This document shows positions 1 to 4,386 of a DNA stretch of 4,386 bases, one piece after another (the first letter of the stretch is position 1; every line of letters starts with the position of its first letter). The stretch lies in IMG/VR virus record IMGVR_UViG_2711768010_000004, positions 1-4,386 of that record; one strand, given 5' to 3'. Below the pieces are notes generated by a model, which was not told the origin of the DNA, searched no databases, and was given only the letters and a program-made list of their open reading frames with translations. Source of the DNA: a virus (Duplodnaviria; Heunggongvirae; Uroviricota; Caudoviricetes). The translations under genes and the position numbers were made by a program.

Positions 1-60
1 CTCTCGTCTGGGGAATATCTCCCCGGCAGCCTTCAGGGAAAAATATCATCAGATGGCTGC

Positions 61-414
61 TTAAAAAAAGAACAAATGGTAGTGTCCGCTATTGCCAGTA
101 CACCTCAATTGCTCTGCGGCTTCGCTCAGAGCTGGCGTATGTTCCCGGCCTACTGATTCACACAGGTAATCAACGAAACCGGACACCAGTTTTCGTTCGC
201 GAGGCGTGATCGCCCCACCGACCGGAGTCCAGTAATCGAAACCCAGTTGCAGGAGTTTGAAAAAACGCTTGTGGAATGCGTAGTTACACACACGCTTAAA
301 GTCTGCGTGTATCCACTCACCTATTTTGATTTGATGCAGAAAATCGCAACTCTCCGGCGTCGCCGGGAGAAGTAATCCGGAAGAGGTTTGTTTGACCAGT
401 TGTATATGTGCCAT
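61..414 (-). CDS. Hypothetical prophage protein, 117 aa (MAHIQLVKQTSSG...HYHLFFF)
   Basis: Track ORF 61..456 begins at a TTG (454-456) that overlaps the upstream stop. An in-frame ATG at 412-414 is preceded by GGAGA with a 6-nt spacer, so I place the start there. No family recognised. Confidence 0.45.
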   Translation of the reverse strand: MAHIQLVKQTSSGLLLPATPESCDFLHQIKIGEWIHADFKRVCNYAFHKRFFKLLQLGFDYWTPVGGAITPRERKLVSGFVDYLCESVGREHTPALSEAAEQLRCTGNSGHYHLFFF

Positions 415-452
415 CGGCTTTCTCCGGTGGCACGGTGTTACACAGCAGGAGT

Positions 453-740
453 TCAATCCTGCTCAAGATTGTAGATGAGTTTATTCTTCAGCAAAAGCAG
501 AAAACCAGCCTTAAAACCAATCTCTTTCAAAACCCGTAATGATGTGACAAATTCGTCCTCACGCAAAATAAAACCGTCCGTCAGAAGTCCATTACAAAAA
601 TAAAATAACACAGCACCGCTCTTCCTTTGTTGAGATTGCAAACATCTAATGCGGCAATGGCTGACAATCGCTCCATTCTCAACGCGCACAGCATAGAGGC
701 CATTTTCACTAAAAATTTCACGCAATTCTTCGATTTTCAT
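453..740 (-). CDS. Hypothetical prophage protein, 95 aa (MKIEELREIFSENGLYAVRVENG...)
   Basis: ATG start at 738-740 and TGA stop at 453-455. Weak GGA-type RBS about 8 nt upstream. Sits downstream of a predicted promoter and the hok terminator. No family recognised. Confidence 0.45.
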   Translation of the reverse strand: MKIEELREIFSENGLYAVRVENGAIVSHCRIRCLQSQQRKSGAVLFYFCNGLLTDGFILREDEFVTSLRVLKEIGFKAGFLLLLKNKLIYNLEQD

Positions 741-821
741 CTTCAGAATCCTTCCAGATAAATAGCTCTCCCCTGTTCGGGGTCCATCCCTCTTCTCCCT
801 GCGCGCTACTTAAGTGAGTCG

Positions 822-849
822 ATTCTATCTGCGAAGGTGCGCGAATCAA
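822..849 (-). promoter_or_regulatory. Candidate sigma70 promoter for the two small downstream ORFs
   Basis: Minus strand reads TTGATT (plus 844-849), a 16-nt spacer, then TAGAAT (plus 822-827). It lies just 3' of the hok terminator and about 80 nt upstream of the ATG at 740. Sequence match only. Confidence 0.3.
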
Positions 850-857
850 ATTCACCG

Positions 858-914
858 GAAATAAACAACAAAAAACCCGCCGAAACGCTGAGAGATCACA
901 GCGATGGGCGGGTT
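858..914 (-). terminator. Rho-independent terminator ending the hok transcript
   Basis: Outer stem 874-881 pairs with 907-914 (AACCCGCC/GGCGGGTT). Inner stem 886-890 pairs with 899-903 (CGCTG/CAGCG). On the minus strand this is followed by TTTTGTTGTTTATTT. Confidence 0.45.
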
Positions 915-953
915 AAGTGCGGGTGCGTTGAGGATGCCTGACACATCAGAGGT

Positions 954-981
954 GGGCGGGGATGGGATCAGCTCCCCGCCC
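954..981 (-). promoter_or_regulatory. Stable stem-loop in the hok 3' UTR (possible fold-back/stability element)
   Basis: Perfect 9-bp inverted repeat GGGCGGGGA (954-962) and TCCCCGCCC (973-981) with a 10-nt loop, starting 9 nt after the hok stop. No U-run follows, so it is not itself a terminator. Hok-family mRNAs are known to carry structured 3' ends. Confidence 0.4.
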
Positions 982-989
982 GGTCACTC

Positions 990-1145
990 TTACTTCCTGG
1001 ATTCGTAGTCTACGAAGACAGCGACCTCCGTCTGGCCGGTTCGGATTCGTACCTCACAGAGGTCTTTCCTCGTTACCAGTGCCGTCACTATGACGGTTAA
1101 ACAGATGACGATCAGGGCGATTAACATCGCCTTTTGCTGCTTCAT
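990..1145 (-). CDS. hok: Hok/Gef-family small membrane toxin, 51 aa (MKQQKAMLIALIVICLTVIVTALVTRKDLCEVRIRTGQTEVAVFVDYESRK)
   Basis: ATG at 1143-1145 preceded by AAGGAG, TAA stop at 990-992. The translation is nearly identical over most of its length to chromosomal HokD/Gef as I recall them, with a hydrophobic transmembrane core and the conserved RKDLCEV motif. In the track it is fused to the upstream gene only because of read-through across the N run. Confidence 0.9.
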   Translation of the reverse strand: MKQQKAMLIALIVICLTVIVTALVTRKDLCEVRIRTGQTEVAVFVDYESRK

Positions 1146-1167
1146 AGCCTGCTTCTCCTTGCCTTTC

Positions 1168-1208
1168 NNNNNNNNNNNNNNNNNNNNNNNNNNNNNNNNN
1201 NNNNNNNN
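1168..1208. other. Assembly gap (41 N)
   Basis: Run of n characters. It hides the stop of the QueH-like gene and the hok leader region where mok and sok would lie. Confidence 0.99.
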
Positions 1209-1853
1209 GATAAGAGGGCGTCCCTGAGATTTGCGGTGTAGATTGGTATCGCGCAGAGAATACACACAGCCACAATATTCCTGCTGATAGAATTTTTCGC
1301 GCTTGCTGATTTCAATCATACGGGACGAGCCGCCCTGCTTGCGCCAGTTATAATCCCAGTACACCATGCCCGGATAATGCGCGACGGCTCGCCGCCCACA
1401 GTCGTTAACCTGCTGCATATTTTTCCAGCGTGAAATGCCCAGTGAACTGCTGATCACACTGAAACCATTTTCAGCGGCGTACAGCGCTGTCCGCTCAAAA
1501 CGCATGTCAAAACACATGGTGCAACGGATCCCTCGTTCGGGCTCCCATTCCATTCCTTTGGCTCGTTCAAACCAGTTGTCTGTGTCGTAATCAGCATCAA
1601 TAAACGGCACGCCGTGTTGTTCAGCAAAGCGAATATTCTCATCCTTACGAATTAAATACTCTTTCTGAGGATGAATGTTCGGGTTGTAGAAAAAGATGGT
1701 GTAGTCGATTCCCGAGGCCTGAAGCGCCTCCATCACCTCACCGGAACATGGAGCACAGCAAGAGTGCAGTAGTAGTTTGTTTGCCCCGTTTGGGAGCTCC
1801 AATTTGGGCCGTTTGAAATCAGCAACTGTCATAAATATGTTTATTGGGGTCAT
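1209..1853 (-). CDS. queH: QueH-like epoxyqueuosine reductase homolog (DUF208), 3' end incomplete in gap
   Basis: The translation carries the DUF208/QueH signature cysteines: HSCCAPC, RCTMC and YCGCVYS. At least 215 codons are visible, consistent with the usual QueH length. ATG at 1851-1853 (alternative ATG at 1830-1832); neither has a strong Shine-Dalgarno. Confidence 0.8.
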
Positions 1854-2000
1854 AAAAATATCAAAGAGTGTAGCATTAGAACGGGGCTATCGGAAACAGA
1901 TGTGTGACTGCTCCCCGCCCTTTCGGGTGGTCTCCTGATGATTTGAGGGTGCAGAAATCCCTCCGGTTAAGGATTAAATTTTTAACAGTGCTAAATTTAA

Positions 2001-2357
2001 TTATTCAGTTCTGGATTTTGTCGCCCTGCGTATCCGCGCTTTCGCGTTACGCTCAATCTGTATCAGCTTTTCTATATTTCTCCGCCTTTCCTGTTCCTCC
2101 TGGCGCAATAGCCTTACATCATCTGCCAGTCTGGTTTCTCTTTTTGCCACAGAGAGCATCCAGTCAAACGGCTCCACAACCGCACCGCAGATTTTACAGC
2201 GGACCTGACGCTCTTTTTCGTCAACCCGTACAGAGGCGTGATGGCAATATGGTCTTTCCGATGGCTCATAAAGAAAATTAACCTGATTACGAGGGTCATC
2301 CTCTTTTACCGGAAATAAAACGATATTGCTTAACTCATCTTCTGGTTTTATTTCCAT
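2001..2357 (-). CDS. Hypothetical Zn-ribbon protein with basic coiled-coil C-terminus, 118 aa
   Basis: ATG at 2355-2357 preceded by AAGGAGAGG, TAA stop at 2001-2003. Carries a C-H-H...C-x-x-C cluster (PYCHHASVRVDEKERQVRCKICG) and a K/R/E-rich tail. An alternative ATG at 2412-2414 abuts the upstream stop as TGAATG and would add 19 residues. Confidence 0.55.
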   Translation of the reverse strand: MEIKPEDELSNIVLFPVKEDDPRNQVNFLYEPSERPYCHHASVRVDEKERQVRCKICGAVVEPFDWMLSVAKRETRLADDVRLLRQEEQERRRNIEKLIQIERNAKARIRRATKSRTE

Positions 2358-2414
2358 GCTCCTCTCCTTTGATGCGAATGCCAGCGGTAATTGAAGCCTG
2401 ATAGCTAATTTCAT

Positions 2415-2837
2415 TCACAGTATCGCCTCCTGAAAATTACCCTGATAGAAAGCCAGTACACGCTGCATAGCTTCGCTCTTCCGGCACTCGCGACAGATTA
2501 TATTCAGGCGCCTGTCGTAGCGGCGTATTTCTCCGTCAGGTAATGACCAGATAAGGTCCGGATCAACAACAACCGGTTTCCTCACCTTTACTCTCGAGAG
2601 TTTTTTGCGGGCGCTTTGCCAGTCCTTGCGAGCCTGTTCAGACGGGAATAAGCCGTAGCCAGAATTATATACATCACCACTTGCGACCAGTTCTATGCAT
2701 AAGCGACCGACAGACGCACGACTGATACCTGTTTCATCTGACAACTGCCGAATCGTGACCCGACCGTCCTGATGCACGAGTTCCACAATTCGCGTCTTCA
2801 GTTCTTCCCGCTGTTCGGGAGTAAAAGGTTTCGCCAT
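2415..2837 (-). CDS. Winged-helix (HTH) DNA-binding protein, 140 aa, unknown function
   Basis: ATG at 2835-2837 is preceded by AGGAGG in the 14-nt gap after the DnaC-like stop. The N-terminal segment VTIRQLSDETGISRASVGRLCIELVASGDV looks like a winged-HTH. Stop at 2415-2417. Confidence 0.65.
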   Translation of the reverse strand: MAKPFTPEQREELKTRIVELVHQDGRVTIRQLSDETGISRASVGRLCIELVASGDVYNSGYGLFPSEQARKDWQSARKKLSRVKVRKPVVVDPDLIWSLPDGEIRRYDRRLNIICRECRKSEAMQRVLAFYQGNFQEAIL

Positions 2838-2851
2838 AAATCCTCCTGAAA

Positions 2852-3598
2852 CTACTTAACAACCCTCGAATGGCTAACATTCGGACGCCAGCTCTCCCAG
2901 TTAAAATTCACCCAGCGCCCGCCGTTCATGACCATGCGATCCATCACCCGCTCGCCGAGCAATGTTTTCATCACCTCATAGTTCAGGTTTGTCAGCATCC
3001 CCACGCTGCGCATCGACGCTGTCCGGCGATCAACAATCTGGTGCAGCACCACCTGCTCGTTTTTCGTCTCGCGCTGAATGCCAATTTCATCAAGAACCAG
3101 CAGATCCACTTCGCACAGCTCCCGCAAAAATTTTTCGCCTGACTGCCCGTCGTCATAGCTGGCGTGCAGGGCGCTCATAACATCAGCCACGGTAACCACA
3201 ATCACTGTCTGACCGTCTTTCAGCAGGCGATTCCCGATAGCTGCCGCTAAGTGATTCTTCCCGGTACCAGGTTTTCCGCTGAACGCAAAATTTGTACACC
3301 CGGTCATCAGTTCATCGGCGATGGATTTCGCCTGGCTTAACGCGTATCGCTGGCCGTCGTTCTGCACCTGGTAATTCGCAAACGAGCATTTACGGTGCAA
3401 CGGCTGGATGCCTGAGCGATTCAGAATTTTTTCCACCCGCAACTGGCGATTCAGGCGGTTGATCTCCTCGCTACGTTTCTGGCCTTCAGCAAGTTGCCAC
3501 TCGCGCCACTCCGCTACCGTTCTGAATGGGGCGGTTACATGTGGCGGGGTCAGTCGGCGGATGCGTTCCAGAACGCCGCCTGTCGCAATATTTTTCAT
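2852..3598 (-). CDS. DnaC-like AAA+ helicase loader / replication protein (YdaV-like), 248 aa
   Basis: Walker A (SGKPGTGKNHLA) and Walker B (LLVLDEIG) motifs are visible. I recall the sequence as very close to the Rac prophage YdaV replication protein. ATG at 3596-3598 lies 6 nt after the upstream gene's stop. Confidence 0.9.
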   Translation of the reverse strand: MKNIATGGVLERIRRLTPPHVTAPFRTVAEWREWQLAEGQKRSEEINRLNRQLRVEKILNRSGIQPLHRKCSFANYQVQNDGQRYALSQAKSIADELMTGCTNFAFSGKPGTGKNHLAAAIGNRLLKDGQTVIVVTVADVMSALHASYDDGQSGEKFLRELCEVDLLVLDEIGIQRETKNEQVVLHQIVDRRTASMRSVGMLTNLNYEVMKTLLGERVMDRMVMNGGRWVNFNWESWRPNVSHSRVVK

Positions 3599-3953
3599 GG
3601 TCCGTTACCCCCTGAAGCCTGGCGGGATCGCACTGTCCGGCAACGAGACGGTGTTAACCTGTCGGAGCAACGTCTCAGGCCGAACACCTTTCGGCGCGAA
3701 CAGGCCCTGGTATTCATTGGCGATGCTGTGTCGAATCACCTGCTCAGGTGTAAAACCCTGCTGACGGAATTTTTCCAGTTCCCGTATCGCCCCGTTAGCG
3801 CCCTGCTCCGTTCGAATCGGTTTTCGCAATGCCTGTCTGAACCGGACCCACTCATGCCAGAGTGTTTCCGGCAACCAATCGGGCAGCTCAATAGCCTCCG
3901 GCTCGAATTTTTTAGACGCTCGTTTTTGGCGAGGGGGAGATCAGTATTTAGAT

Positions 3954-3971
3954 CTTCCTCTTCCTCTTCCT
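3954..3971 (-). repeat. (CTTCCT)3 hexamer repeat encoding a six-glutamate acidic tract
   Basis: Three tandem CTTCCT units on the plus strand, read on the minus strand as GAG GAA x3 in the middle frame of the initiator gene. Confidence 0.8.
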
Positions 3972-3973
3972 CT

Positions 3974-4016
3974 GGTAACGCTTTTTGATCCGTTTGTGTA
4001 ACGCTGGCAGCGTTAC
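3974..4016. repeat. Iteron-like GTAACGCT 9-mers: one direct copy plus a 19-bp palindrome
   Basis: GGTAACGCT at 3974-3982. GTAACGCTG at 3998-4006 is mirrored by CAGCGTTAC at 4008-4016, giving the palindrome GTAACGCTG-G-CAGCGTTAC. Confidence 0.7.
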
Positions 4017-4281
4017 CTTTTCGTTTCAGTTCGCGTATTTTTGTTACTCGCTCGTTTGTAACCGCCCGTTTTTTTTAGAGCTTTTTCCGTTATGACGTTC
4101 AAAGTTAGGTAGAGAAAGCCCTCCGTCATTTTCGACCAGCCATCCAACCTGAATTAACGCATCAGCAAAACCAGACATAAAAGTGATGCGATCTATTGCA
4201 CTTTTTGTAACGCCGCGAGCGTTACAATCTGCATTACCGTCTATCATTTGTTGATCCGCCCATGCCCAGAAGCGAATAACC

Positions 4282-4386
4282 TGAGGTAGCCTGAGTTTAA
4301 CGGACACTCCTTCCTGAAATAGAATGGCATCAGAAGGAGCTAATAATGAGCAGAAAAACCCAACGTTACTCTAAAGAGTTCAAAGC
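4282..4386 (+). mobile_element. IS3-family insertion sequence, left end (IS600-like), partial
   Basis: A terminal TG at 4282 opens TGAGGTAGCCTGAGTTTAACGGACAC, an IS3-type inverted repeat. About 60 nt inside is an AGGAG RBS and an ORF opening MSRKTQRYSKEFK, which I recall as the IS600 OrfA N-terminus. The rest of the element is outside the window. Confidence 0.55.
4346..4386 (+). CDS. IS3-family transposase OrfA, N-terminal 13 codons only
   Basis: ATG at 4346 with AGGAG 7 nt upstream. The RYSKEFK motif is typical of the IS3-family OrfA HTH region. Truncated by the window edge. Confidence 0.5.
   Translation, partial: MSRKTQRYSKEFK

Follow-up and report, generated by a model that had tools for sequence, protein, structure and literature searches.

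A candidate lambda-style replication origin within a decayed initiator gene of a Rac-like lambdoid prophage

The stretch of viral DNA analyzed here, positions 1 to 4,386 of the IMG/VR record IMGVR_UViG_2711768010_000004 (Caudoviricetes; the whole 4,386-nucleotide stretch is hereafter called the window), carries on its minus strand the remnant of a YdaU-like replication initiator gene, within which two perfect 19-bp palindromes, additional 7-bp half-sites and a GA-rich polypurine tract are found. We propose, with a probability of roughly 0.6, that positions 3953-4237 represent the cis-acting core of a lambda-style intragenic replication origin of a Rac-like lambdoid prophage. The narrower proposition that the repeats are cis-acting sites read by the initiator is held with considerably more confidence and, judged from the comparison of homologous loci, is very probably correct. 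The layout resembles that of an origin, in that sites are located in the disordered linker between a predicted winged-helix-like N-domain and a DnaT-like C-domain, with the gene of a helicase loader immediately downstream.

Palindromes and half-sites within the initiator gene

The elements of the candidate origin and its immediate surroundings are as follows.

3939-3954, unstranded: GATC pair (GATCAGTATTTAGATC) followed by the remnant of a C-run repeat (TCCCCCTAAATCCCCC), just beyond the tract; 10 bp are deleted here
3953-3973, minus strand: GA-rich polypurine tract of the coding strand (TCTTCC x3.5 on the plus strand), encoding EEEEEE
3975-3981, unstranded: terminal half-site, GCGTTAC-C on the coding strand, directly adjoining the polypurine tract
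3998-4016, unstranded: linker palindrome GTAACGC-N5-GCGTTAC (GTAACGCTGGCAGCGTTAC), proposed site of an initiator dimer and core of the candidate origin
4043-4062, unstranded: GTTAC (4043) and GTAAC (4058) 5-mers, not supported as part of the element
4207-4225, unstranded: distal palindrome GTAACGC-N5-GCGTTAC, in the coding part for a loop of the N-domain
4231-4237, unstranded: direct half-site in degenerate form (coding strand GTAATGC), at a distance of 12 nt from the distal palindrome

The half-site GTAACGC occurs six times in the window against 0.45 expected, five of these copies lying within 3975-4225, and the perfect 19-bp palindrome occurs twice, against none in 200 shuffles; chance is therefore excluded as the cause of the repeats. 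A first-pass annotation, made from the window alone, had described here a 9-mer in one direct copy together with a palindrome. The palindrome (3998-4016) and the direct copy (at 3975) both hold, with the correction that the repeated unit is 8 nt long (GTAACGCT, at 3975-3982 and 3998-4005) and not 9, and to them are to be added the second perfect palindrome at 4207-4225 and the half-site at 4231-4237, which had been missed. The latter half-site, degenerate in the window, is a perfect GTAACGC at the same position in phage 666R9 (position 9207). In intact loci, the non-coding spacer ahead of the gene contains a third perfect palindrome, 14 nt from the start codon and next to the Shine-Dalgarno sequence; the window has lost this copy to the insertion sequence (IS) IS600. 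The upstream palindrome was found in about half of the loci, the intragenic palindromes being nearly universal. In an AlphaFold (AF2) model of the intact initiator, the disordered linker (aa 96-160) includes the acidic tract and the residues coded by the linker palindrome and the terminal half-site, and a loop of low confidence (aa 49-60) is coded by the distal palindrome. The palindromes are confined to the initiator gene in two complete phage genomes, and no copy was found in the repressor/cro operator region.

Conservation was examined in a comparison set of 27 genome loci and four phage or plasmid loci, spanning Enterobacterales and Betaproteobacteria as well as metagenome bins of Planctomycetota, Saccharibacteria and Ignavibacteria. 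The identity across these loci is 36-70% for the protein and 50-72% for the nucleotide sequence, and most of them preserve the 14 specified bases, with 0-1 mismatches, at two corresponding positions of the gene, the central five bases being free. Most of the 27 genome loci and all four phage or plasmid loci have the linker palindrome at the same gene position with 0 or 1 mismatches, and homologues keep the distal palindrome at +148/+160. In a codon alignment of 25 sequences, the third-position entropy is 0.54 bit in the eight half-site codons versus 1.53 bit in the 121 others (Mann-Whitney p=3.8e-6); for the codons of the terminal half-site (A135/L136/P137) it is 0.66, 0.25 and 0.54 bit, respectively, against the same background. 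The third position of codon 54 is invariant while its residue varies among C, G and S. More generally, the residue preceding Asn varies (C/G/S), yet its codon always ends in GT, and the residue preceding Val is mainly S or G, also C and N, with a codon ending in GC in most sequences. Furthermore, three of the phage or plasmid loci (L032, L033 and L035; Enterobacter phage BUCT554, a Klebsiella phage and a plasmid-like circle of E. coli) translate the linker palindrome in a different frame, as NVTRTALQ and not GNAASVT.

The repeats might have been regarded as a by-product of coding, inasmuch as the aligned proteins show an xNAxxVT peptide repeatedly and enteric homologues keep the acidic tract. 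Coding constraint is nevertheless excluded as the cause, because synonymous sites are frozen, the reading frame changes under the same DNA, one copy is non-coding, and the bases are kept at 36-70% protein identity; together with the counts that shuffled sequences never reach, these findings refute an origin of the repeats in coding or chance. Conservation of the repeats at the DNA level beyond coding requirement, which the first-pass annotation had suggested checking, is thus borne out by synonymous entropy, by the frame change and by the diverged homologues alike. The same annotation had also counted inverted GTTAC/GTAAC half-sites at 4043-4062; these 5-mers do exist, but the third positions of the corresponding codons 108-114 are unconstrained (1.3-1.8 bit), and they were rejected as sites.

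On the plus strand, antisense to the gene, positions 3998-4026 comprise the linker palindrome followed by CTTTTCGTTT and were flagged as terminator-like; such flags are no commoner than in shuffles. The arrangement recurs, since many homologues have an A-rich sequence ahead of the palindrome on the coding strand.

Half-site classes and the polypurine tract

The linker array follows a common grammar in 26 loci: one to three direct half-sites at 12-nt spacing are followed by an inverted half-site 12 nt on, and then by a final inverted half-site 11, 12 or 23 nt beyond, after which come CC and a GA-rich purine run. The same architecture is built from different half-sites in other phages, namely GTCAC..GTGAC in a Vibrio phage, GTAGACG..CGTCTAC in Ralstonia phage Raharianne, and GTCCGC-N7-GCGGAC in epsilon15 and phiPSA1. 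Because all copies in one genome carry one half-site and the half-site differs between clades, the repeats appear to be recognized by a single sequence-specific reader that has co-evolved with the initiator. In three variant loci of Planctomycetota and Enterobacteriaceae, both arms of the palindrome are changed symmetrically, in both copies in L023 and L029 (CTAACG..CGTTAG for GTAACG..CGTTAC) and in the single copy found in L026 (GTAATGC..GtATTAC); these variants look like small specificity steps within the GTAACG class.

The polypurine tract adjoining the last half-site is itself conserved. In the window, it forms the longest homopyrimidine run (21 nt, 3953-3973) and contains, at 3954-3971, the (CTTCCT)3 repeat that the first-pass annotation had correctly pointed out. 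The tract is the most purine-rich 24-nt stretch of the whole 3-8 kb locus in 23 of the 25 homologous loci, and CGTTA(C/G)C directly adjoins the purine run in 19 of 26. Since the (AGAGAAG)n DNA is translated in different frames, as EEEEEE (also PEEEEEE) in enteric members and as PEKRR or PREEKRRE elsewhere, the tract is under selection at the DNA level too. When viral contigs were scanned with the 23-nt polypurine tract alone, at least 120 contigs were found, 110 of which have enough upstream DNA; among the matches listed, 86 of these 110 encode the N-domain of this initiator directly upstream of the tract, and in 53 of 81 non-identical loci the stretch coding for the N-domain includes, 240-335 nt upstream, a palindrome of matching class. 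The half-site classes represented among the listed contigs are GTCCGC, GTAACG, GTCACG, GTAGAC and GTCCCG. We regard the universal polypurine tract as the most unusual feature of the system, and it is proposed as the site of unwinding or helicase entry.

Some viral contigs (L045, L054, L068, L084, L092, L146 and L156; also L058, L064, L073, L090 and L144) contain the exact 23-nt tract with no detectable N-domain of this initiator family, and still show other short repeat arrays directly upstream of it. The tract may accordingly be shared by the origins of unrelated initiator families. On the 3' side of the tract, the window (3931-3954), L001, L004 and other loci contain an element consisting of GATCTAAAnACnGATC followed by (T)C5-TAAAT-C5, with two GATC (Dam) sites 12 nt apart. 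This GATC/C-run element is common to the allele of the window and the ydaU allele of E. coli K-12, and is situated exactly at the start of their homology. In distant homologues it encodes the peptide KDPP..NPP, so that the conservation of this element may be at the DNA or at the protein level.

The initiator remnant and its gene neighbourhood

The genes and lesions relevant to the interpretation are listed below.

2852-3598, minus strand: DnaC/IstB-like AAA+ helicase-loader gene (ydaV-like), intact (Pfam IstB_IS21 E=1e-19, Bac_DnaA)
3605-4282, minus strand: YdaU-like replication initiator remnant (pseudogene); its three-frame translations join only against intact 262-aa homologues
4069-4076, unstranded: T8 run causing a +2 frameshift versus T6 in intact homologues (alignment columns 400-401)
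4283-4386, plus strand: IS600 (IS3 family), left end; copies labelled 'IS3-like element IS600 family transposase' match it at 100% identity

The initiator gene of the window is a pseudogene, because it is truncated by IS600 and contains two frameshifts relative to intact homologues. IS600, inserted in codon 35 or 36, has replaced the first 35 codons and the upstream spacer; the second lesion is the T8 run, one of the T-rich runs that the first-pass annotation put forward and that do not belong to the element, and in fact a frameshift mutation; the third is a 10-bp deletion at about 3937 (TCCCCCTAAA, coding strand), beside the polypurine tract. The designation of the gene as initiator-like holds for the family, an intact homologue giving a full-length match to PHROG 2509 'replication initiation protein' (E=1.2e-89, aa 1-262 versus profile 1-277), but what the window contains is an inactivated copy, and not of a lambda O relative: PHROG 678 'O-like' covers just aa 77-236 of the intact homologue. 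The intact protein matches no Pfam family at E<=0.01 and none in NCBIfam. Its C-terminal 93 residues (aa 170-262) align to the DnaT C-domain (PDB 2ru8, E=9.5e-5; also 9zbt). The AF2 model, built from a 30-sequence alignment (mean pLDDT 68), is composed of a helical N-domain with a beta-hairpin (aa 16-91), the disordered segment and a three-helix C-domain. A Foldseek search of the model against the PDB gave nothing significant (best E=0.37), the weak top matches all being winged-helix regulators, and the N-domain is predicted from this model to be winged-helix-like. The initiator is the sole gene common to 18 diverse loci. A group of E. coli and Salmonella proteins (P0011-P0058, 376-380 aa) is 93-99% identical to the window allele in the N-domain, the linker sites and the acidic tract, and carries an insertion of about 115 aa (PKPFPSGREFRDF…GRIDIVVTDRNG) right after the acidic tract, before the DnaT-like C-domain.

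The minus-strand genes are, from right to left, the initiator remnant, the loader, and genes for a DUF977 protein, a zinc-ribbon protein, a QueH-like protein, a hok-like toxin and a DUF1367 protein. The product of the loader gene, which is labelled ydaV in homologous loci, is the initiator's partner. Rac-like lambdoid prophages of E. coli and Shigella match the region at 92-98% identity, with the initiator annotated as ydaU, 'hypothetical protein' or 'replication protein O'. In the alignment, homology to intact loci stops at about 4282, at the boundary of IS600, whose orfA starts at 4326 (MSRKTQRYSKEFK); identical copies of IS600 (100%) are present in many E. coli genomes, which suggests an IS-rich Shigella or E. 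coli as the host. The hok-like type I toxin open reading frame (ORF; 990-1145, minus strand; MKQQKAMLIALIVICLTVIV...) is separated from the ORF for the QueH-like epoxyqueuosine reductase by a run of 40 N (1169-1208, masked or unsequenced), by which the ORF listing merges the two into one 287-aa ORF; the corresponding two genes of an intact locus (L001) are annotated hokD and QueH.

Proposed mechanism, alternatives and known systems

In the predicted mechanism, the winged-helix-like N-domain of the initiator would bind the 7-bp half-site GTAACGC, a dimer occupying each of the two 19-bp palindromes and, in relatives, an oligomer the half-site arrays at 12-bp spacing. The duplex would then be opened, most likely at the GA polypurine/polypyrimidine tract adjoining the last half-site, and the DnaT-like C-domain would recruit the host DnaB with the aid of the neighbouring phage-encoded DnaC-like loader. 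The distal palindrome and the non-coding upstream copy are probably auxiliary or autoregulatory sites. Still present in the window are both intragenic palindromes (distal and linker), the tract and the terminal half-site, and the site is probably a relic; as the window's own initiator is a pseudogene, the origin could fire only with a related initiator supplied in trans. A search of plasmids for natural mini-replicons yielded only two phage-like circles.

We also considered a bolder variant, in which the GA tract itself would be the element where initiation takes place in a large family of phage origins, the duplex being opened by an R-loop or in another strand-asymmetric manner and not at an AT-rich unwinding element. 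The tract is conserved as DNA across both reading frames and initiator specificity classes, and may be so across unrelated initiator N-domains as well. Transcription of the initiator gene would yield a purine-rich RNA stably paired to the pyrimidine template, and the initiator bound at the half-sites would place its DnaT-like, single-stranded-DNA-binding C-domain on the displaced strand for subsequent DnaB loading. This variant is speculative and, in our estimation, improbable; if true, it would constitute a phage version of the PriA/DnaT-type loading at R-loops, made sequence-specific through the fused origin-binding domain.

Several observations weigh against an origin at this site. The AT-rich stretch that the first-pass annotation cites for lambda was looked for at the site and not found, the AT content being 53-60% and a GA polypurine tract occurring instead, and the region ranks only within the least-stable 2-3% of 40-nt windows in two phage genomes and the present window. 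Some 200 bp separate the main sites, whereas the iterons of lambda are in tandem, and operators, too, are typically perfect palindromes with a copy beside the ribosome-binding site. The assignment of a winged helix depends on a model of moderate quality that gave no significant Foldseek match. An active origin, oriJ, has been reported for Rac (PMC3945230), of which the accessible literature makes only mention; no report was found that maps oriJ to ydaU or at the nucleotide level. Finally, the copy in the window has a dead initiator, lacks the upstream palindrome and is deleted for 10 bp beside the tract.

The strongest of the competing explanations, although still an unlikely one, is that the repeats are operators only, through which the initiator or another regulator exerts autoregulation by roadblock or looping (cf. 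lac O1/O2/O3), the true origin being located elsewhere. Perfectly dyad-symmetric 19-mers, one of them just upstream of the Shine-Dalgarno sequence in intact loci, a spacing of about 190-220 bp that fits looping, and the lack of an AT-rich element in the region would all agree with such a role. However, the upstream copy was found in only about half of the loci, versus the nearly universal intragenic copies, and direct half-site arrays on a 12-nt lattice beside a polypurine tract conserved at the DNA level are not features of operators. The tract alone, moreover, marks the initiator family among the viral contigs listed, and the placement of the sites in an inter-domain linker mirrors that of known intragenic phage origins (PMC7466680).

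Considerably less probable is a function of the palindromes as mRNA hairpins (7-bp stem, 5-nt loop) that control translation of the initiator message, RNA processing or stability. The palindromes can fold, with single-strand fold z-scores of -2.9 to -3.4, their arms remain complementary through the changes from clade to clade, and one copy adjoins the ribosome-binding site. Within a clade, however, the stem is invariant over very large distances and the loop is free, the opposite of what is typical for structured RNA; all copies in a genome share one stem sequence, which separate hairpins would not need; unpaired direct half-sites and the lone terminal half-site are also conserved; and the conserved polypurine tract is left unexplained. 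The idea that the region is merely a module junction, providing homology for recombination between N- and C-terminal modules of the initiator with no role in initiation, is the least probable of the three. It draws on a 43-bp stretch (3945-3987) nearly identical between otherwise diverged genes, on the variety of C-terminal modules downstream of the tract (DnaT-like, 376-aa variants and others) and on the start of homology between the K-12 and window alleles right after the tract, but it accounts neither for clade-specific half-sites that match between the linker and a distal site about 200-330 nt away nor for the dyad symmetry and the 12-nt lattice, and if an origin is conserved, recombination there would follow from the conservation and not bring it about.

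If the proposed intragenic origin is confirmed, an origin will have been defined for an initiator family of many temperate and some virulent phages, including Rac-like prophages of E. coli and Shigella, epsilon15-like Salmonella phages, and phages of Xanthomonas, Ralstonia, Pseudomonas and Vibrio, in which the initiator is at present annotated only as 'hypothetical', 'primosomal protein I' or 'replication protein O'. A sequence rule, that is, a half-site lattice ending in ACC followed by (AGAGAAG)n, would then allow both the origin and its specificity class to be recognized, and the clades would offer a natural series of initiator/site specificity swaps for studying the evolution of recognition. 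The role played by a polypurine tract in place of an AT-rich unwinding element becomes a question in its own right. For the window itself, the finding is a modest one: the copy has decayed, and the prophage that holds it is riddled with IS elements.

Phage origins that lie within the gene of their initiator are well known as a kind, but the origin of this family and its site grammar have not, as far as we could find, been described. The candidate origin is best compared with ori-lambda, which is located in the middle of gene O and consists of iterons and an AT-rich tract (PMC7466680). The first-pass annotation saw here the place and style of a lambdoid origin; in favour of this are the position in the inter-domain linker, the adjacent loader gene and the co-variation of the sites with the N-domain across clades, which is also seen with lambdoid iterons. 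As in lambda, the putative origin lies in the initiator's own gene, in the segment linking the DNA-binding N-domain (binding being inferred here) and the loader-recruiting C-domain; it contains dyad-symmetric sites of about 19 bp with an asymmetric strand composition beside them; and the N-domain and sites are exchanged between alleles as a unit, the C-domain staying matched to the loader (PMC7466680). In the style of its sites it departs from ori-lambda, whose four tandem 19-bp iterons have as their counterparts here single palindromes and half-sites of 7 bp on a lattice of 12 nt; additional copies lie some 200 bp off and ahead of the gene, and a GA polypurine tract occupies the place of the AT-rich block. 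The initiator has no Pfam match to Phage_rep_O, and its partner, unlike lambda P, is a DnaC/IstB-like AAA+ protein, the initiator C-domain being DnaT-like. The replication modules of Eru-type Stx phages (PMC8044961) were also considered as a match and rejected, since they contain different genes.

A resemblance in logic to iteron plasmids may also be worth following, as a lead only. In plasmids of the pPS10, R6K, F and P1 class, a winged-helix Rep protein acts on direct repeats at the origin, and an inverted repeat near the start of its own gene serves autoregulation. Unlike these Rep systems, the present initiator gives no Pfam and no significant Foldseek match, and its sites lie inside the coding sequence, as 7-bp half-sites on a 12-nt lattice and not as iterons of about 19-22 bp. 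No AT-rich 13-mers were seen, and no DnaA boxes were met, though these were not searched for. With E. coli DnaT (primosomal protein I), the initiator shares the terminal motif PDSxIPPGFRG of the C-domain; unlike DnaT, its N-terminal two thirds are unrelated, and the DnaT-like domain is fused to a predicted sequence-specific origin-binding module.

The closest comparison is offered by the Rac module of E. coli K-12, which has the same order of genes (ydaT-like, initiator, ydaV) and flanking DNA that is >90% identical. From the GATC/C-run element onward, YdaU of K-12 has the same DnaT-like C-domain; its N-domain, unlike that of the window allele, is DUF1376 (E=2.7e-26), and hhalign of the window family against K-12 YdaU aligned the C-terminus and revealed no homology of the N-domains. 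A literature search for an origin within ydaU/DUF1376 genes found none. At the same linker position as in the window, followed by the same GATC/C-run element, K-12 ydaU possesses a repeat cluster of its own: RTGTTSAA occurs with six of its seven copies inside the gene versus 0 in 200 shuffles, and has no match in the window. In the extended form (C)AGRTGTTSAA(ACA) (L004 3406-3477, 3625 and 3710), four copies, one of them inverted, lie within 68 bp of the linker and two in the part coding for the N-domain, and this cluster is a candidate for the position of oriJ. Because K-12 ydaU joins an unrelated N-domain and a different linker repeat to the same C-domain, the N-domain/repeat modules of these initiators are exchangeable, as exemplified by the K-12 and window alleles.

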